A stretch of DNA of 64,000 nucleotides from contig OZ242221.1 in NCBI GenBank assembly GCA_965206845.1, forward strand, positions 64,001 through 128,000, in the 5' to 3' direction. This DNA comes from Cenarchaeum sp. (GTDB lineage: Archaea; Thermoproteota; Nitrososphaeria; Nitrososphaerales; Nitrosopumilaceae). The notes under the pieces were generated by a model, which was not told the origin of the DNA, did not search any database, and saw only the letters and a list, made by a program, of their open reading frames with translations. Position numbers and translations under genes: made by a program. Shown here piece after piece: positions 26,655-36,340 of this stretch. Every line of letters begins with the position of its first letter. Positions within the stretch are counted from its first letter, which is position 1.

Positions 26655-27280
26655 CCCTCCGCCACCATCTCCACCGTAATCCGACACGGAGCTATCCGTA
26701 CATGAACCGCTCACGTACAACTAACAGCCAGCCGTGGAGGCCGGTGCGGCGCGGGGGGAAGACCCCGGGCCGCGTCCGGGGGCAGTCTTTTTGCGCCTTC
26801 GCGTAAACCGGATCGCCGCACCAGGATGTCACGGGAATGATGCATGCCATGTGCCTGACGCGTGCCATGCGTCTCGGCGCAGAAAGGCTGCGCGGGGTGT
26901 TTTCCCAAACGCTAGATATGGATTGATGGAATTGATGTCTTATTCACCGCAACCATGTGCCACTCCAGAACAGCCATGCGCCCAGGCTGGCGCCGGACTT
27001 CTTGGTTCCCCACGCAGAGACGGCGTCATCCGCTACATTCGCGGCAAAGTCCTGTCCCGACTCCCGCCAAACGTGTCAGTCACGGTGTCGCGGCATTCGG
27101 CATTCGTTGGAGCGGCGGTAGGCGCACCTATGTTAAAACATCCGGTCATAGTCAAGCGTTGATTCCGTTTGACTTCTGATCCACGCCTAGGTTACGCGCG
27201 TGCAACTTTAAAGCTACCGCTAGGGACTGGATTGCAGAAAATCCTGATGCAGGACAGGCCTGACTGGCCGGCCCGTGCAC

Positions 27281-28360
27281 CTACTGCAGGACCTTCTTCA
27301 TCCGTTTCAGCTTTCTGGCATATCGGTCTGCGTTGCGGGACTCGTACGGTTCCTTGGCAGTCAGCATCTTCCAGATGATCCTCACCATCTTGTTTGCCAC
27401 GTGCGTTATGGCAATCGGGTGGTTGCCACCGTGCCTTGTCTTGGCATTTTGATAGAACCACTTTAGCCTATCGTCATAGCGCACCGCCACGTTGGCGGCC
27501 TGGATCATTATCCAGTTTACCCTCCGGTTTGACGCCTTTTTCATGCGGCCGTAATGCGTCACGTTGCCGGACTGGTAGACCCGCGGACACATCCCGGTCC
27601 ATGAGACCAGCCTGTCTGCGGTCTTGAACCTGGTGATGTCGCCAATCTCAGATACCAGCAGCATTGCGGCAAACGTCTCTATGCCAGTCATGCTCATCAG
27701 CAGTTTCGCGTTCTCGTTGACTGCGGCCTGCAGGTCTATCTCTGCCTCGATGCATGTTATCTCCTCTGTGGCATGTGCAATCCTTTTGACGCAGTTTTGC
27801 AGGATCATGTCATCGTTTGGCTTCTTGAGGCGTATCTGCGAAAGCAGCCTGACGGCTTTTTTGCTATACATCCTTGAGACGTCTGGCGTCACGTCGTACT
27901 TGTCAAGCAGGCTGTGCGTGTAGTTGACCAGGGCGGTCCTTGCCTGGACCATGCTTATCCTGTACCTGAGCAGTTCCCTGGCATCGCGCAGATCCGGCGG
28001 TGCCACGTAGCATTCTGGAATGATTCCCACGCGCAGCGCGTTTGCAATCTTTTGCGCGTCGATGGGATCCGTCTTGACGTCGGTGTCCGATATTATCTTC
28101 ATCCTGTACGTGTTGGCAAGCTTGATCGGTATCCCGGACTCTTCAAACGCCTCAAACGTCTTGAGCCACATGTTTGCAGTCGATTCGCACGCGGCCTGGC
28201 ATCGTCCCTTCCCGCCGTATTCTTTTTTCATCCTGCGCGCAAACTCTTTTGCGTCTTCCAGCGTGTTCTTGTATGACGTCCTCTCCAGCACGCCTCCCTT
28301 GCCGTCCACTACGCATACTATGCATTTTCCTTTACCAATGTCTATTCCTATGTTTCTCAT
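27281..28360 (-). CDS. IS110-family DEDD recombinase/transposase, intact
   Basis: IGID, ACES, KTDPIDA, MTGIE, EIGDITRF, YQSG serine motif; SD AAGGAGGTGA upstream of ATG 28360. Confidence 0.95.
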   Translation of the reverse strand: MRNIGIDIGKGKCIVCVVDGKGGVLERTSYKNTLEDAKEFARRMKKEYGGKGRCQAACESTANMWLKTFEAFEESGIPIKLANTYRMKIISDTDVKTDPIDAQKIANALRVGIIPECYVAPPDLRDARELLRYRISMVQARTALVNYTHSLLDKYDVTPDVSRMYSKKAVRLLSQIRLKKPNDDMILQNCVKRIAHATEEITCIEAEIDLQAAVNENAKLLMSMTGIETFAAMLLVSEIGDITRFKTADRLVSWTGMCPRVYQSGNVTHYGRMKKASNRRVNWIMIQAANVAVRYDDRLKWFYQNAKTRHGGNHPIAITHVANKMVRIIWKMLTAKEPYESRNADRYARKLKRMKKVLQ

Positions 28361-28389
28361 CCTTTCTCTCACCTCCTTGCGGATTGTTT

Positions 28390-28530
28390 TTGGCGGATCG
28401 GAAGCTGCAATCACCTATCAGTGCGCGGAGCACAGGAACACAGCAGCTCGGATTGCCCCATTCAAAGGGAAGTGCGCGAAGCACATGGTTTACTAGGGGT
28501 CGATCCACTGCCATGACTACGACGAAGATG
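28390..28530 (-). ncRNA. Predicted bridge RNA of IS110 element 1
   Basis: Outer stem GUGGAUCG/CGAUCCGC encloses two internal-loop hairpins capped by GUGC-UYCGC-GCAC; G-U pairs favour the minus strand; loop strands match the element junctions. Confidence 0.8.
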
Positions 28531-28635
28531 TTTTTCCATGTGTTCAAAGGTTGCTGTGGCTGGCAGAACAAGCAGCCTGACGGAAACGGGCCTGAAAAGT
28601 AGGGCGGGCAGGCTTGAAAAATAATAACGGATCAC

Positions 28636-31193: not shown

Positions 31194-32246
31194 TCACAGG
31201 AGCCCATGCCTGTCTAGGCTGGCAAGAACGTCAAACGGGATTACCGCCACCTTGTGCCTCCTAGGCGTCGGCGATCCGATCCTCACCCATGCACCCCTTG
31301 TCCTCTCCATTCCGACGAAGAGGATGCCCCTGCTCCTGAGTACCCCGATTGTAGATCGCGATCCGCCCTTGAACCACCGTCTCATCGTATCGTCCCTACC
31401 AAACCGCTTCTGCAAGCCGGCATACATCCGGAGTCCCCCTGTCTCTGCAACGTATCTCAGGCAGTCCATCCCGTCATCCGAGAGGCCGTCCACGGCGCGC
31501 CGTATCCCGTCAGACGTGAGCTCCGACGAGATCGCCACTGCCTTGTCCTTCTTGGTGCGGCACGGCATGTCAAGTCCCAAGGAGTCCCACACATGGTTTA
31601 TCATGGCGGCCGGAAGCTTGTTGAGCACCGTGAGCAACGCAGAGTCAGGCGAGGCGGAGGCGTATTCGGCATTCCTGATGTATTGCTTGATCCTCTCTTC
31701 CCGGCCGTGCCCCTTCTTCCTGCCGTACTCCTCAAAGTCGCGAGCCAAGTCGTCCACCATCACTATGCGGTGGGTAGACTTTGTTATCGCCATGCTTTGG
31801 AGGGTGTACGGCTCGTCGCGCCCATGCCCGGTGAGCCACCCAACGAAGGATTTTGTGAACGCCAGCCTCGCCGCCACGCTGAGGGCTGGCAGGATGCGGT
31901 ACAGGGTGCCGTTGCTGCGTGCCCTGGCGGTAACGAGTCCGCCCCCGTCGCTCTCCACCAGATCGAATTCGCCTATGACGCCATTCTGCATAAAGAGGAT
32001 CATGTGTGCCAGAATCCGATCCTTCACGTACTTGTCCACAAAGTCCTCCAGCGGGGTGGTTCCTGTCACGGGATCTGCACTGTAGCTGAACCACAAAGAG
32101 ATCATCAAGCTGTTGTAGTACTCGACATCCACGTCCGTGCTGTAGGGATACCTGTCTCGGGCCTTCGCTAGGTCGCCGCGGCGCTCTTGCTGCACGTACT
32201 CGTGGAAGACCTGTGGGAAGTTGTCTTCGTTAACCTCGGGGCACAT
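31194..32246 (-). CDS. Hypothetical protein, 350 aa; N-terminal domain paralogous to 34315-34800
   Basis: Long ORF with TATA-like TTATAT about 25 nt upstream; shares DPVTGTTPLEDFVDKYVKD with NPKTGTTILEEFIERHVTD. Confidence 0.75.
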   Translation of the reverse strand: MCPEVNEDNFPQVFHEYVQQERRGDLAKARDRYPYSTDVDVEYYNSLMISLWFSYSADPVTGTTPLEDFVDKYVKDRILAHMILFMQNGVIGEFDLVESDGGGLVTARARSNGTLYRILPALSVAARLAFTKSFVGWLTGHGRDEPYTLQSMAITKSTHRIVMVDDLARDFEEYGRKKGHGREERIKQYIRNAEYASASPDSALLTVLNKLPAAMINHVWDSLGLDMPCRTKKDKAVAISSELTSDGIRRAVDGLSDDGMDCLRYVAETGGLRMYAGLQKRFGRDDTMRRWFKGGSRSTIGVLRSRGILFVGMERTRGAWVRIGSPTPRRHKVAVIPFDVLASLDRHGLL

Positions 32247-32414
32247 GCCACAGATAATGAAGCCTAGAATATAACGCCTGCCATATGGGAGTTCTTCAGC
32301 AGATACTCAGGTGTGCATCCTTAGATCCATGATTAGAATCCAGAGAACTGTGCCGTAGGCACCACAAGTCTTGCCATATCCACACCTGATCAGACACTAT
32401 GTGTTGCTGATATA

Positions 32415-32562
32415 AGGGCAACCGTAGTAACCGCCCTGTTGGACCTGAGAGTCGATGAGACCCTGCCACGTATGAGGGCGTTACTCAGACTGACTCAAGG
32501 TATGCGGATAGTGAAATACCGCTTTGACGGTAAATGGGAGTTTTCCGCTGGTCGGGTCCACT
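32415..32562 (+). ncRNA. Predicted bridge RNA of IS110 element 2
   Basis: 5' stem AGGGC/GCCCT; outer stem UGGACCUGA/UCGGGUCCA; loop 1 closed by GAGUC/GACUC; loop 2 closed by GCGGA/UCCGC with hairpin UACCG/CGGUA; four guide segments match the junctions. Confidence 0.82.
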
Positions 32563-32584
32563 TTACTGCAAAGGAGGTGAGAGA

Positions 32585-33658
32585 ATGTATTACATTGGAA
32601 TAGACGTTCACAGAAAGAAGTGCGTTACAACGATCAAGGAAGACAGCAAGCGGGTGCTGAAACGCACCTCGTTTGACAACGACACCACCGGAATAAACGG
32701 GTTCATCGGGATGCTCCGCAGTGACGGGTACCTGCCGGCCACTGCGGCCTGCGAATCGACCGGCAACTATTGGATCGTCCTGCACGACACGCTGGAGGCG
32801 GCGGGCATCGACACCCTGCTGGCGCACCCGTACCACCTCAAGATAATCACCCAGACCGCCTACAAGAACGACAAGGCCGACTCGGAGAAGCTGGCCGAGT
32901 TGTGCAGGCATGACATGATCCCGGAGTCGTTTGTGGTAAATGCCGCCCAGCGCGACATGCGCGAGCTGACCCGCAGCCGCCTTGGACTGGTGGGCGACAC
33001 GGTAGCGCCCAGAAACCGCATCCACGCGATCGTTGCCAGGTATTCCTACAAGCGTCCCAGCTGCGGACTGTTCACAGGCGGCGGTCTGGAGTGGCTGCAG
33101 AGCCTGTCCCTGAGCGAGACCGACCGTCTGGGGGTGGACACCCACCTGGCCAAGCTGGTCTTCCTGCGGGGGCGGATCGCCAGGTACGAAAGGAGGATAG
33201 CCGAGATCGCCCGGAACGACCCGCGGGCGCGGCTCATCATGATCATCCCCGGAATAGGCTACATTACGGCGGTAACCATACTGGCCGAGATCGTCGACCA
33301 CGGGCGCTTTGCCAACGCAGAAAAGCTGGTCTCCTACGCCGGACTGTCGCCGAGGCACCACAACAGCGGGGATACTGTCAGGACGGGCGGCATAACAAAG
33401 CGCGGCTCCGTCTGGCTGCGCACCGCCATGGTCGAGGCCGCCTTCACCGCCATCAGGCACGACGCCCGGATAGGGGCGCGCTACCACAAGCTGGCAGCCC
33501 GCATAGGGACCATGAAGGCAAGGGTGGCCACGGCCAGGGTCATGCTAGAATGGGTCTGGGAGATGCTGAACAGCGGCACCGAGTACAGGGGAATAGACAG
33601 AAAACTCGTCAGGCGGAAAATGCAGATGACAAGGTGTATCGCCGAGTCCCAGGCGTAA
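32585..33658 (+). CDS. IS110-family DEDD recombinase/transposase, intact
   Basis: YIGIDVH, ACESTG, KNDKADS, IPGIG, YAGL.P.HHNSG; SD AAGGAGGTGA. Confidence 0.95.
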   Translation: MYYIGIDVHRKKCVTTIKEDSKRVLKRTSFDNDTTGINGFIGMLRSDGYLPATAACESTGNYWIVLHDTLEAAGIDTLLAHPYHLKIITQTAYKNDKADSEKLAELCRHDMIPESFVVNAAQRDMRELTRSRLGLVGDTVAPRNRIHAIVARYSYKRPSCGLFTGGGLEWLQSLSLSETDRLGVDTHLAKLVFLRGRIARYERRIAEIARNDPRARLIMIIPGIGYITAVTILAEIVDHGRFANAEKLVSYAGLSPRHHNSGDTVRTGGITKRGSVWLRTAMVEAAFTAIRHDARIGARYHKLAARIGTMKARVATARVMLEWVWEMLNSGTEYRGIDRKLVRRKMQMTRCIAESQA

Positions 33659-34314
33659 CGCCAGGCACTTCCGTCCGGGGGCGTTTCGCCGCCCCTGCAC
33701 AGGCGAGGGGCGGCTCAACGCCCCTTCCGTTCCCTCTGGCTGCCAAAAACAGTGTTGGCAGTAGCCGTCCGGCGCGCGCCGCCCGGCGCGGCAGCCGCCG
33801 GCACACTGGAACTTCCCGGATTTTTAACCGCCTTCCCGCCGCGGCCCGGCGGGGCAACTGCGGCTCCCGTGTAGGGGGTAGCCAGCGCAGGCTGCGCGCC
33901 ATCCGGCGATCCCGTCCGGGACAGGACAGGTTCCGCTCCGAGACGGGCCCGAATATTTAAAAAACCGGCCGGCTAACCTGCAACTGGACTGAACCAGACG
34001 CATTGCCAACACATGACATCTGCGGGCGCAGACGCCCGTAACACATGGGAGTCTCATGTGCCCGTCTGTCATATGGAGGCTAGACGAGAATCGACAGGAA
34101 ATTCGAACCCACGGGCTGGCGGACTCGAGAATGTGCCAAGCGTGTGTTTACGTTGCCAGAACCCGTAAGCGTTCACGCCCCCCATTAATTCACGACTAGC
34201 TGCCACTATGCAGACACGCCCATAGGCACGGATCGGTAGTGGACGTGAACGCCTATGCCAGAACCCGACCCTGCAGTCCGAAAAATACATTTTACGCGTC
34301 TCTGACCGTTCTGT

Positions 34315-34800
34315 ATGCCACATGCCATTACCGCGAAGAACTATCCCGAGTTCCTCCTTCAGTACGCGGACAAAAAGTACTTCCTCGATCTGGTGGATGC
34401 CATGCTTGAATGCCCGTACCGTCTGGGGTTCGACAACGCAAATTATGCAGACACCCAATCCGCGGTCTGGGCCACCCACGCATGGGTCAATCCTAAGACC
34501 GGAACCACGATACTTGAAGAGTTCATAGAAAGACACGTGACGGACAGCAGGGTTGCCGCCAAGATTCTCCAAGCAAAGAATCTCATTCATGACAGGTTCG
34601 AGGTACTCAAGAACAACGGCAACAGGGTCGTTACGGCAAGAGCCGGCGGAAGCGGTGCCACATACAGGATCGCAATGGGTTCTGGGATGGCATACGCGCT
34701 TGATAAGGGATCTGCATTTATCGGGCTGATACACCCATGGGGGGCAGACGGAACGCACAAGGCAGCCGGGTTATGGATGATTGTGAGACCGGACAAGTGA
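34315..34800 (+). CDS. Hypothetical protein, single-domain paralog of the 31194-32246 N-terminus
   Basis: NYPEFL/NFPQVF, TGTT.LE.F, VTARA...GATYRI/GTLYRI, FIG/FVG align. Confidence 0.72.
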   Translation: MPHAITAKNYPEFLLQYADKKYFLDLVDAMLECPYRLGFDNANYADTQSAVWATHAWVNPKTGTTILEEFIERHVTDSRVAAKILQAKNLIHDRFEVLKNNGNRVVTARAGGSGATYRIAMGSGMAYALDKGSAFIGLIHPWGADGTHKAAGLWMIVRPDK

Positions 34801-35131
34801 TCCTGGGATCTGATTTGCAATTAGCACCCAGACACAAGATGTACGCGATTTCCAAACCGATCACGCATGGTTTTGCTTATTGTGGATCACGTCTCTGACA
34901 GGCGGCAGACCGTCACCGGACCACAGGCGACGCACCGCCGCGATCCCCCGCGCAGCAGGCCGGGACGCGCCAGCCCTCCTCCACCCCCCCACGGATGGCC
35001 GGTTTTGGGAGTCCCTGTAGGCAGATGCGACGCAGTTCTGCCCATGCGCGCGATCCCCCGCATGCCATGCAACCGATCCCTGAAACGGGTACCCGTTGGG
35101 GAAGAGGATCCGAATGCATGCTGCAAGAACG

Positions 35132-36340
35132 GAGGTTGGTGCGTAATTCTCCGAACCGCCTAGACCCGTCCGATACGTTCAATGATCCGCGATCTCCCGC
35201 ACGCGGCAATGAGCGAACACAACAGACGGGAAGGGTACTGGCAGTATTATGAGCTGGCAAAGGAAGTCGAGGCGCCTAGTCTGAAGAAGGAGCTGATCGA
35301 GATAATCCGGGAGAACCCTTGCCCGCGCCGAGAAAACGGCAACAGGGGTCGTCCCCCGGTTCACTCCAAGGAGAAACTGGACTTTGCCTGTCTGCTGATG
35401 ATGGCAGGCAACAACACCTATCGCGGAGTCGAATCGGATCTGCGGGGCATGCGGACACCATGGGACAACGAGCCCGTCCCGGACCATACCACACTGGTCA
35501 GGCACCTCCAGACGATACCGGCAGACTGGCTCGATCTGATCGTGGCCGAGACGGCCCGCCGTTGCATCAAGGAGGCGGACGAGGCGACGGGTCCGCTGGG
35601 CGCCGACAGCAGCGCGGCGGAGACCACTAGGTACGAATACGTCGAGAGGCCGAGCAGGGAGGAGCGCGACTTTGTCGAGACACGCCAAAAGACCTACTGG
35701 AAATACCACATAACGGCCATCTTGGGCCTGCAGATCGTGCTGGCGGCGTTTACCACGCCCGGCAACATCAACGACACGACCATGCTTCCAGTCATGCTGG
35801 CTGAGATCAGGCGCCGCGGGTTTGACTTTGCGGGGAACTTCTTTGACGGGGACAAGGGGTACGACTCTGACTACAACTGCGAGCTGCTGTTCTGGATGGG
35901 CATGATCCCCAACATCAGGCAACGGAAGGATGCCGTCAACCGTGGCAAGCCACACAGGAGGAAGGCGGCCGGCATGTTCAGCGATAGCGAGTACAGAAAG
36001 AGGGCCCTGATAGAGGACATCTTCGGGGCCGAGGAGACCCGGCGGCACCAGCTGCACTGCCGGTTCGTCCGGAAGGACAACCGGCGCCTGTTCGCCAAGG
36101 GAAGGGCGATCGCCTGGAACATCCGGGTCCTCAACCGGTTCGAGTGCGCCAACCGGCTAAACATACCAATACCCTCCTACGGTGGCGTGGCGCACGCGGA
36201 GTGCGCCTGATGATCCGACCCGTCAGTAGCTGATCACGGCGTGCGGGCAACAAAAGCTCGACACGCACCAAAGCACCGCCGGTGAAAACGCGGCGGGAGA
36301 CGCACATAAGCAGGACGGAGCAGAATTACGCACCAACCCC
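35132..36340 (+). mobile_element. Complete IS (IS5/IS4-like DDE) with ~19-bp TIRs and 9-bp TSD
   Basis: GAGGTTGGTGCGTAATTCT ... AGAATTACGCACCAACCCC; GCAAGAACG at 35123-31 and 36341-49. Confidence 0.93.
35182..36210 (+). CDS. DDE transposase (IS5-like)
   Basis: VPDHTTL, GADSS, KYH, GDKGYD, YRKRALIE. Confidence 0.9.
   Translation: MIRDLPHAAMSEHNRREGYWQYYELAKEVEAPSLKKELIEIIRENPCPRRENGNRGRPPVHSKEKLDFACLLMMAGNNTYRGVESDLRGMRTPWDNEPVPDHTTLVRHLQTIPADWLDLIVAETARRCIKEADEATGPLGADSSAAETTRYEYVERPSREERDFVETRQKTYWKYHITAILGLQIVLAAFTTPGNINDTTMLPVMLAEIRRRGFDFAGNFFDGDKGYDSDYNCELLFWMGMIPNIRQRKDAVNRGKPHRRKAAGMFSDSEYRKRALIEDIFGAEETRRHQLHCRFVRKDNRRLFAKGRAIAWNIRVLNRFECANRLNIPIPSYGGVAHAECA

Follow-up and report, generated by a model that had tools for sequence, protein, structure and literature searches.

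Members of the IS110 family in the broad sense carry a recombinase in which an N-terminal DEDD RuvC-like domain (PF01548) is joined to a C-terminal Tnp domain (PF02371) with a catalytic serine. They lack long terminal inverted repeats, duplicate a 2-bp core at both ends and insert site-specifically. For IS621, published accounts place CT on the gene strand and match the 5′ guide to the left-end flank (PMC11208158; PMC11208160). For IS1111 elements, the reports cited here give subterminal inverted repeats of 7–17 bp (PMC11208160), usually 11–13 bp (PMC11187229), together with terminal extensions of 7 (or 6) bp at the left and 3 bp at the right; a few members are described there with upstream or double non-coding regions (PMC11187229). 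A preprint (bioRxiv 10.1101/2024.06.21.599552) lists 662 archaeal IS110 recombinase homologues, in several clades mixed with bacterial ones, so that occurrence in an archaeon is no novelty by itself. The passages of that preprint drawn on here deal with proteins and phylogeny, and archaeal bridge RNAs, guides and targets are not described in them.

The traits given above for the IS110 family in the broad sense are found at a locus in the DNA analysed here, a stretch of 64,000 nucleotides that we refer to as the window. We consider it highly probable that positions 32394–34049 plus one AG constitute a complete, single-copy IS110-family insertion sequence with a bridge RNA, carried by an ammonia oxidiser of the Nitrosopumilaceae. 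By analogy with its bacterial relatives, the element very probably picks its insertion site by means of its own small RNA. It is of a known kind, with some variant features. An ammonia-oxidising host had been named in the original prediction, and this agrees with the archaeal amoA in the host genome and with relatives that are labelled Nitrosopumilaceae.

Ends, recombinase and comparison with described elements

The features of the ends and of the gene are as follows.

32392–32393, + strand: left core copy AG (CT on the minus strand); one AG is present in relatives' empty sites, and AG in 23/23 parsed relatives
32394–32398, + strand: left terminal extension ACACT, which with AG makes 7 bp outside the inverted repeat
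32399–32405, + strand: left subterminal inverted repeat ATGTGTT, the reverse complement of 34040–34046
32585–33658, + strand: recombinase gene, 357 aa, DEDD RuvC-like and Tnp domains, with D7, E57, D96, D99 and S261 (Pfam, IS621 alignment)
33659–34049, + strand: long right non-coding end, 391 nt, 68% G+C, its inner part variable between copies
33952–33965, + strand: conserved A/T-rich motif AATATTTAAAAAAC, a candidate archaeal TATA/BRE promoter pointing outward
34023–34038, + strand: conserved hairpin just interior to the right inverted repeat, CGGGCG / CGCCCG (covariation by eye)
34040–34046, + strand: right subterminal inverted repeat AACACAT, pairing with the left repeat at 32399–32405
34047–34049, + strand: right terminal extension GGG, 3 bp (sequence and aligned right ends)
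34050–34051, + strand: right core copy AG (empty sites, G014 copies, and loose ends after 34051 in runs X18 and X19)

The likeness between two copies in the genome of one relative (G014) ends exactly after ATGGGAG, and contigs of other samples diverge into unrelated sequence at 32390/32393 and 34051/34052; the element boundaries are thus independently supported. Near-identical copies occupy other insertion sites in other samples with their boundaries unchanged (contigs). Other copies had been expected to end at the same places, and the other-sample contigs do so, as does the G014 pair after ATGGGAG. The junctions read as predicted, TCAGACACTAT at 32390–32400 on the left and ATGGGAGTCTCAT at 34045–34057 on the right. 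In its own genome the element is present once. Contigs of other runs, two of them labelled 'sponge metagenome', show it next to other flanks, and a variant in runs X1 and X2 has 22 letters in place of 33667–33790.

The recombinase matches PF01548 (7e-20) and PF02371 (4e-26), both above the curated cut-off, and aligns with IS621 chain 8wt6_A (E = 4e-20) with the D, E, D, D and S columns conserved, as expected for the intact IS110-family gene that had been proposed. A Shine-Dalgarno-like GGAGGTG lies directly 3′ of the left-end structure. The closest metagenomic relatives (P0001–P0003) are 91–94% identical. The best tblastn matches on plasmids are at most 36% identical and are annotated as IS110 family without subgroup names, and so give no guidance on whether the protein belongs with IS1111 or with IS110.

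Several traits of the locus are those of the IS1111 group. The DEDD/Ser recombinase is shared with members such as ISEc11 and IS4321/IS5075, which have a seekRNA or bridge RNA, although the host, unlike the hosts of those examples, is archaeal. As described for IS1111 (PMC11187229), the ends carry 7/3 extensions, AG plus ACACT and GGG, if the core copy is counted with the left end, and the RNA segment complementary to the gene (top) strand precedes the segment that matches it. The subterminal inverted repeat is likewise an IS1111 trait; at 7 bp it sits at the short end of the published range, with an equivalent of 11 bp in the G014 relatives, whereas 2–3 bp are given for IS621 (PMC11208160). 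Also unlike IS621, the strand that carries CT is the one opposite the gene strand, and the flank read by the 5′ guide is that of the right end. We rejected this flipped polarity as a new trait, given that it is the pattern stated for IS1111; together with the subterminal repeats and the 7/3 extensions, it is an IS1111-group trait already published (PMC11187229). In contrast to IS1111, whose guide RNA lies downstream, the RNA structure is upstream of the gene, and both non-coding ends are long. The predicted guide RNA in the left end (32396–32560), ahead of the gene at 32585, resembles the arrangement in IS621 and the IS110 group.

Left-end structure and covariation of the guides

Covariation among relatives indicates that the left end folds into a 5′ hairpin followed by an outer stem around two internal-loop hairpins.

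32396–32428, + strand: 5′ stem-loop, including element bases 3–8 (helix 1: 12 pairs, 8 compensatory, 83.8% of cells paired)
32440–32448, + strand: outer stem, 5′ strand, pairing with 32552–32560 (helix 2: 9 pairs, 3 compensatory, 91.2% paired)
32449–32453, + strand: basal stem of the target loop, 5′ strand GAGTC, pairing with 32492–32496 (helix 3: 100% paired, 2/5 compensatory)
32454–32463, + strand: loop 1, 5′ side, GATGAGACCC, predicted guide complementary to the gene-strand right flank (guide/flank tables)
32464–32480, + strand: inner hairpin of the target loop, TGCC / GGCG (helix 4: 100% paired, 2/4 compensatory)
32481–32491, + strand: loop 1, 3′ side, TTACTCAGACT, predicted guide identical to the left flank plus AG (guide/flank counts)
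32492–32496, + strand: basal stem of the target loop, 3′ strand GACTC (helix 3)
32504–32507, + strand: basal stem of the donor loop, 5′ strand GCGG, pairing with 32545–32548 (helix 5, invariant in 19/19)
32508–32516, + strand: loop 2, 5′ side, ATAGTGAAA; ATAGTG is the reverse complement of element bases 2–7 (CACTAT)
32517–32532, + strand: inner hairpin of the donor loop, TACCG / CGGTA (helix 6: 97.9% paired, 3/5 compensatory)
32533–32544, + strand: loop 2, 3′ side, AATGGGAGTTTT; ATGGGAG (32534–32540) equals the right end ATGGG plus core AG, a motif invariant in the family
32545–32548, + strand: basal stem of the donor loop, 3′ strand CCGC (helix 5)
32552–32560, + strand: outer stem, 3′ strand (helix 2)

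In the alignment used (A1; 19 distinct sequences, 39 pairs), 92.7% of cells are paired, compared with 29–46% when the partners are slid by 1–3 columns, and its covariation score is reached by 0/500 shuffles. Both sides have changed in a compensatory manner in 18/39 pairs, so that the test of covariation among homologues that had been proposed came out positively. Helix 5 is uninformative on pairing because it is invariant in all 19 sequences. The divergent sequences L050, L003 and L015 are off by one column in the 3′ strand of the outer stem in A1, which counts against the structure, and seven of the 19 sequences (the L037 group) carry a 36-nt insertion at the inner hairpin of the target loop. 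A second alignment (A2) was discarded on account of a misplaced 5′ part in the seven sequences with this insertion. The prediction of two loops inside an outer stem is supported by covariation over 19 relatives but is not reproduced by the minimum-free-energy fold of the single sequence, which gives a different structure without two internal loops in an outer stem (z = −1.74, unremarkable). An Rfam scan of 31500–35000 gave no relevant match.

The order of 5′ stem-loop, target loop and donor loop is that of IS621, as are the internal loops, in each of which the 5′ guide is the longer one and the 3′ guide closes on AG. We know of no outer stem enclosing both loops in IS621; the window element has one. 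An A at 32489, after the 3′ target guide, is present in 23/23 rows and is a candidate handshake base at the place where IS621 has its handshake guide. Pairing of a donor-loop handshake base with the first base of the right flank, seen by eye in 9/15 events, is not claimed.

All of the strings that had been listed for the two loops are present, including ATGAGAC (32455–32461) and TCAGAC (32485–32490) in loop 1, and ATAGTG (32508–32513) and ATGGGA (32534–32539) in loop 2. None of 200,000 shuffles of the left end (32406–32584) holds all four of ATGAGAC, TCAGA, ATAGTG and ATGGGAG, and 58 hold at least three. The assignment of loop 1 to the target and loop 2 to the donor is supported across relatives, where the 3′ side of loop 1 tracks the left flank, its 5′ side tracks the right flank, and loop 2 tracks the element's own ends; such covariation of loop bases with target flanks and element ends is the mark of a bridge RNA or seekRNA. 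When 24 distinct guides are represented once each, the 3′ target guide agrees with the left flank at 108/120 positions, against a permutation mean of 42.4 and maximum of 66 (0/50,000 reach 108), figures that overstate independence because the relatives are kin. All 5 non-core bases left of AG are matched in 21/31 unique insertions. For the 5′ target guide, a mean of 3.67/7 positions match the element's own flank and 1.86 match those of others in a fixed register (3/20,000 permutations); taking the best of three registers, the values are 4.93 and 2.81 (0/20,000). The 5′ donor guide matches 4–6 of 6 of the element's first bases in 10 distinct guide/end combinations, and the two change together (CACTAT/ATAGTG, TGCTAT/ATAGCA, TGCCAT/ATGGCA). 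Within the family neither the 3′ donor guide nor the right end varies, each reading ATGGG-AG. The count for the 3′ target guide draws on 52 parsed left ends, from which L093, L096, L098, L099, L100 and L104 were dropped (no AG core or no full loop in the alignment); L043 and L045 are absent from the flank tables (interrupted or shifted). A poor flank match is seen for L111 (0/5), L015 (2/5) and the right flank of L052 (3/7).

Target guides are hypervariable among near-identical copies. Between the window copy and its relatives of 92% and 91% protein identity, 6/9 and 5/9 of the left-end differences, respectively, fall within the 21 target-guide loop bases.

We propose that the bridge RNA would consist of the 5′ hairpin and the outer stem enclosing a target-binding loop (32449–32496) and a donor-binding loop (32504–32548). 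In each loop, the 5′ side would be complementary to the gene strand right of the crossover, and the 3′ side identical to the gene strand left of it, the AG core included. By analogy with IS621 and IS1111 elements, loop 2 would hold the excised circle (...ATGGG-AG-ACACTAT...) and loop 1 the target, and the recombinase would carry out strand exchange at the 2-bp core, after which each side would have an AG.

Fit of the window copy and its core dinucleotide

Compared with most relatives, the window copy is a poorer fit to its own flanks. Seven contiguous bases of its 5′ target guide, ATGAGAC (32455–32461), pair with the core G and TCTCAT, but at register −1, one base off the register usual in the family, which most relatives keep. 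In its 3′ target guide only TC-AG (32485–32488) matches, giving 3/5 non-core positions, and the 5′ side of loop 1 ends in CC, where most relatives have CT. The claim that all guides match the insertion junctions is thus too strong for this copy because of the 3/5 match and the shifted register, although the 7-base match of the 5′ target guide stands. The further remark that the left guides miss part of the core does not hold for the 3′ guides, both of which take in the whole AG; of the 5′ guides, that for the target reaches one core base and that for the donor ends before the core. A search for a cognate site of the window guides in their own genome found none, with 12 matches at 3 mismatches against 28 for the reversed control.

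An alternative that we regard as unlikely, though worth serious consideration, is that the window copy is stranded or decaying, having been placed in trans by the RNA of a copy since lost, or carrying guides that have drifted since it inserted. In that case its site would no longer be specified by its own RNA and the copy may not move, which is compatible with the main explanation for the family. The guide/flank match of the window copy is among the weakest of the 31 events, its core guide is CC rather than CT, and it is a single-copy element with no cognate site in its genome. Furthermore, the flank of the G014 copy L015 (ATAGAC-AG) fits the guide of L102 (ATAGAC) instead of its own, and thus trans action or guide turnover does occur. 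However, the copy has an intact open reading frame, with its catalytic residues, every helix and both ends preserved, and the 7-base match to the right flank is unlikely by chance (~1.3%, for the word anywhere in a shuffled left end). It also bears on this point that the right target guide of IS621 is reported to need only 2 non-core bases (nine-base LTG, four-base RTG; PMC11208160). In the main reading, the window copy may still be mobile.

A second alternative is the original prediction itself, with a GA/TC core, four matching guides, the empty site TCAGAGTCTCAT and the circle junction ATGGGACACTAT. Duplications of GA and of AG can both be read from the window junctions TCAGACACT and GGGAGTCTC, and the GA reading brings the 5′ target guide ATGAGAC into the family register. 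However, it would put the window's 3′ guide out of register, and most relatives keep a fixed register in which CT closes the 5′ guide and AG the 3′ guide. Moreover, in all 13 empty sites found in the genomes of two relatives (G061 with 11, G063 with 2) the flanks are separated by one AG, with no extra GA, in a search that allowed 0–5 spacer bases and returned no spacer longer than AG. It follows that the element duplicates AG as read on the gene strand; on the other strand this is CT, the core also of IS621, where both guides likewise overlap it. The predicted crossover point is one base off, and the GA version is very improbable.

With the AG core, the predicted empty site becomes ...GATC-AG-TCTCATG... 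and the circle junction ...ATGGG-AG-ACACTAT.... In longer form, the empty allele would read ...CCTGATC-AG-TCTCATGTG... and the circle junction ...ACACATGGG-AG-ACACTATGTG...; the short strings GATCAGTCTCATG and ATGGGAGACACTAT, respectively, are incompatible with the GA reading, which would put GA in place of the AG-T step (empty allele) and the AG-A step (circle). The proposed search for further copies and empty sites succeeded with respect to copies elsewhere and the 13 sites in relatives, but an empty allele of the window locus was found in 0/40 relatives searched with either flank. The proposed search for the circle found no joint at the element's ends and no element-skipping contig in 4 runs, which comprise assembled contigs only and are not evidence of absence.

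Hardly credible is the idea that the left-end structure is only a cis element, serving as a 5′ UTR for recombinase translation or as a DNA binding site with no RNA guiding, since this leaves unexplained both the loop bases that change with outside sequences in 24 distinct guide sets and the loop-concentrated differences between near-identical copies, and the homologues IS621 and ISCro4 have solved structures, that of IS621 with such an RNA, even though the contigs show no transcript of the window locus and GGAGGTG lies just past the structure. The left-end structure probably acts as RNA.

Candidate right-end promoter, distribution and implications

The AATATTTAAAAAAC motif (33952–33965) is clear in 12/16 aligned right ends, at a constant distance from the end. 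Contigs of two RNA-library runs (one study) begin at 33996 and 33989 and extend past the right end; these are assembled contigs of relatives, which give no start, strand or level and may hold DNA. The motif may serve as a promoter, one that would transcribe across the circle junction to yield the bridge RNA. A complete TATA-like motif ~95 nt inside the right end would differ from IS621, whose promoter is split across the circle junction. The loop of the 5′ stem-loop, GATATAAG (32409–32416), also resembles a TATA box. A 498-nt RNA-library contig of a relative spans 32426–32923, and its strand, ends and RNA nature cannot be read from it. Parts of the element are uncovered in the RNA runs, which as contigs only are not evidence of absence. 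The right-end hairpin varies as ACGGGT/ACCCGT, CGGGCC/GGCCCG and GGGACC/GGTCC (by eye, no formal count). No loop/flank matches were seen in the 391-nt downstream region.

The family's motif occurs in 13/401 genomes of the order, with one control match, and the conserved donor-loop motif gave 0 matches each in JGI metagenome contigs and IMG/VR. The two closest loci lie on contigs labelled Poribacteria and Dehalococcoidia. Inter-domain transfer was considered and rejected, because their flanks match the window's archaeal genome (66–81% and 98%) and the two contigs are most likely mis-binned archaeal ones.

We suggest tentatively that the family may be a distinct, undescribed Nitrososphaerales lineage of bridge recombinases, combining IS1111-type polarity and ends with an IS110-type upstream RNA, an outward promoter and natural guide reprogramming; published orthologue lists may hold the family. 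Native to ammonia-oxidising archaea and patchy across at least three families, this lineage would have a two-loop RNA closed by the outer stem and guides reprogrammed among copies that are more than 90% identical.

To our knowledge, no natural RNAs other than bridge and seek RNAs specify both partners in a DNA recombination, and genome-writing tools are being developed from them. All of the characterised examples that we found in the literature are bacterial. The family provides an archaeal data set for comparison, in which 24 different target guides occur naturally, empty sites are known and the core is defined, and it indicates that IS1111-type polarity can coexist with an upstream two-loop RNA. 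For sponge-associated ammonia oxidisers, it offers a case of one element homing into the terminus of a second, repeated one; the target in the genome of one relative is placed 18 bases within the end of a different multi-copy element. IS4321 and IS5075 also target transposon ends. Archaea lack sigma-70 promoters, and the family suggests a way in which expression of the RNA could be tied to excision in an archaeal host. If the proposed promoter is real, circularisation would be required before the full RNA, including the 5′ hairpin with the first bases of the element, could be made, and the right-end promoter of an integrated copy would drive the neighbouring gene.

Recombinase gene, relatives and core dinucleotide

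The open reading frame at 32585-33658 (+) encodes a 357-amino-acid protein with both IS110 domains (PF01548, 7e-20; PF02371, 4e-26). This protein matches the solved IS621 recombinase (8wt6_A, E = 4e-20), and the alignment reveals that four acidic residues and the serine are kept (D7, E57, D96, D99 and S261). The element is present as one copy in its own genome (1.65 Mb, one contig), which carries archaeal amoA, and its named relatives reside in Nitrosopumilaceae MAGs.

A protein search yielded 992 homologues, the closest with 91-94% identity, and DNA of relatives was obtained from 37 loci on genome contigs, from related genomes and by scanning 401 genomes of the order for a motif. The motif occurs in 13 of these 401 genomes, with one control hit; by family, it is carried by 8 of 112 other genomes of the family to which the window belongs, 2 of 9 of a second and 2 of 111 of a third. 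The two closest copies (L032 and L033) lie on contigs labelled as Poribacteria and Dehalococcoidia MAGs. These contigs are probably mis-binned archaeal sequences, because their flanks match the genome of the window at 66-81% and 98% identity, and do not count as evidence for the transfer to bacteria that the labels might suggest.

Judged by the junctions of the window copy alone, the duplicated pair could be GA or AG. We therefore rely on empty sites, sought by matching the left- and right-flank words in succession with 0-5 spacer bases permitted. Eleven such sites in the genome carrying relative L046 and two in the genome carrying relative L040 hold a single AG between the flank words, which makes AG the gene-strand core (CT on the other strand), rather than the GA/TC originally predicted. 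The element comprises 32394-34049 and one AG. The corrected predictions are ...GATC-AG-TCTCATG... for the empty site and ...ATGGG-AG-ACACTAT... for the circle junction, replacing those of the original prediction, whose mechanism stands in outline and whose quoted strings are all located where it had placed them.

In the L046 genome (G061; L073-L082, L046 and L047), the target site of the relative is within another multi-copy element, 18 bases in from the conserved left terminus of that element (CTATAGTG...). Among ten empty and two occupied copies that were compared, >60 bases are shared on the right-hand side of the site and nothing beyond CTATAGTG on the left.

Left-end structure and its guides

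A single-sequence fold of the left end is unremarkable. Aligned left ends reveal the following features.

Paired features of the left end, from aligned left ends
32396-32428: 5′ hairpin
32440-48 with 32552-60: outer stem
32449-53 with 32492-96: basal stem of the target hairpin
32464-67 with 32477-80: inner stem of the target hairpin
32504-07 with 32545-48: basal stem of the donor hairpin
32517-21 with 32528-32: inner stem of the donor hairpin

Across 39 pairs in an alignment of 19 distinct sequences, pairing holds in 92.7% of cells, versus 29-46% with slid partners. Both sides have changed in 18 of the 39 pairs, and the covariation score was reached by none of 500 shuffles. The basal donor stem is invariant in the 19 sequences and is thus uninformative on pairing. 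In one subgroup of relatives (L037-L042, L045, L049 and L051), the target-loop inner hairpin is extended by 36 nt of G+C-rich sequence, and the guides flanking this hairpin keep their position. Two relatives are interrupted copies (L043 / L096 and L034); one has an insertion of ~85 nt between the target and donor hairpins, and another has ~1.45 kb between the left-end structure and the recombinase gene.

The 3′ side of loop 1, the target loop, carries the same bases as the left flank of the element. Six of 52 parsed left ends were first removed as unparsable. Of 31 unique insertion events, 21 show a match of this guide to all five non-core left-flank bases, and 24 distinct guides match at 108 of 120 positions (permutation mean 42.4; reached by 0 of 50,000 permutations). 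The 5′ side corresponds to the reverse-complemented right flank and ends in CT in most relatives; its agreement with the copy's own flank averages 3.67 of 7 versus 1.86 for non-self flanks in a fixed register (3 of 20,000 permutations), and 4.93 versus 2.81 in the best of three registers (0 of 20,000). In loop 2, the donor loop, the 5′ side covaries with element bases 2-7, and neither the 3′ side (ATGGGAG) nor the right end (ATGGG-AG) varies. Compared with relatives of 92% and 91% protein identity, the window copy has nine left-end differences in each case, of which six and five, respectively, lie within the 21 target-loop bases.

With an AG core, the 3′ target guide of the window copy matches TC and AG, with agreement at three of the five non-core positions. 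The 5′ guide of this copy, ATGAGAC, is complementary to TCTCAT and the core G before it, a pairing one base off the family register; at the core positions it has CC instead of CT. No better site for these guides was found in its own genome, and no empty allele of its site in 40 relatives. One-base register slips are also seen in the L049 and G014 copies, and copy L015 of genome G014 has a left flank (ATAGAC-AG) that fits the target guide of copy L102 in that genome (ATAGAC) rather than its own guide (GCCAAC). Guide turnover, or the action of guide RNAs in trans, is therefore a plausible explanation of the poor fit between guides and flanks.

Right end, possible transcription and neighbourhood

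Of 16 aligned right ends, 12 clearly show the TATA-like motif AATATTTAAAAAAC (33952-65), at a constant distance from the end. RNA-library contigs from two runs of one study start at 33996 and 33989 and cross the right end of a relative into its flank, and a third covers 32426-32923, although such contigs cannot reveal transcript starts, strand or level. Because element bases 3-8 are part of the 5′ hairpin, any RNA that contains this hairpin has to begin beyond the left end; right-end transcription across the circle junction and read-through would fit such a start equally well. The inner part of the right end is variable. A variant in sequencing runs X1 and X2 has 124 bases replaced by 22 other letters (33666-33791), and more loose ends occur at 33765, 33799 and 33846.

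The surrounding region is rich in insertion sequences. A transposase open reading frame at 35182-36210 (+; DDE_Tnp_1, PF01609, 3.6e-09) lies ~1.1 kb to the right. The flanking open reading frames at 31194-32246 (-) and 34315-34800 (+) lack a Pfam match; they are divergent paralogues of each other, with common stretches such as ...VTARA..G..YRI... The genome also holds at least three full copies of a second, distant member of the IS110 family (27118-28550 on the minus strand; loci L016 and L026; 28-30% protein identity), and two of these copies are alike from TGGAAAAACATC... to ...AACATAGGTG. The subterminal inverted repeat of this second element is 9 bp long (AAAACATCC / GGATGTTTT), and ~85 nt before its right end is a AGCTTTAAAG motif reminiscent of the TATA-like motif at 33952-65.

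Comparison with IS110 and IS1111 elements

Archaeal IS110 recombinases are already catalogued, as seen in sections of bioRxiv 10.1101/2024.06.21.599552, and none of the papers listed by literature searches deals with a thaumarchaeal bridge RNA. According to passages of PMC11208160 and the Extended Data Fig. 1 legend of PMC11208158, the gene strand of IS621 is the CT strand, the 5′ guide of each loop is the sequence left of the core, and the LT-core-RD junction is at the left end. The polarity of the element studied here is reversed. Its inverted repeat (ATGTGTT / AACACAT) and its extensions (AG + ACACT left, GGG right) resemble those of IS1111 elements as described in parts of PMC11187229, where a few IS1111 members are noted to have upstream or double non-coding regions, whereas its RNA lies upstream as in the IS110 group. 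Overall, this is an IS110-family element of the bridge-RNA type, hosted by an ammonia-oxidising archaeon, with IS1111-like ends and polarity and an IS110-like RNA position.
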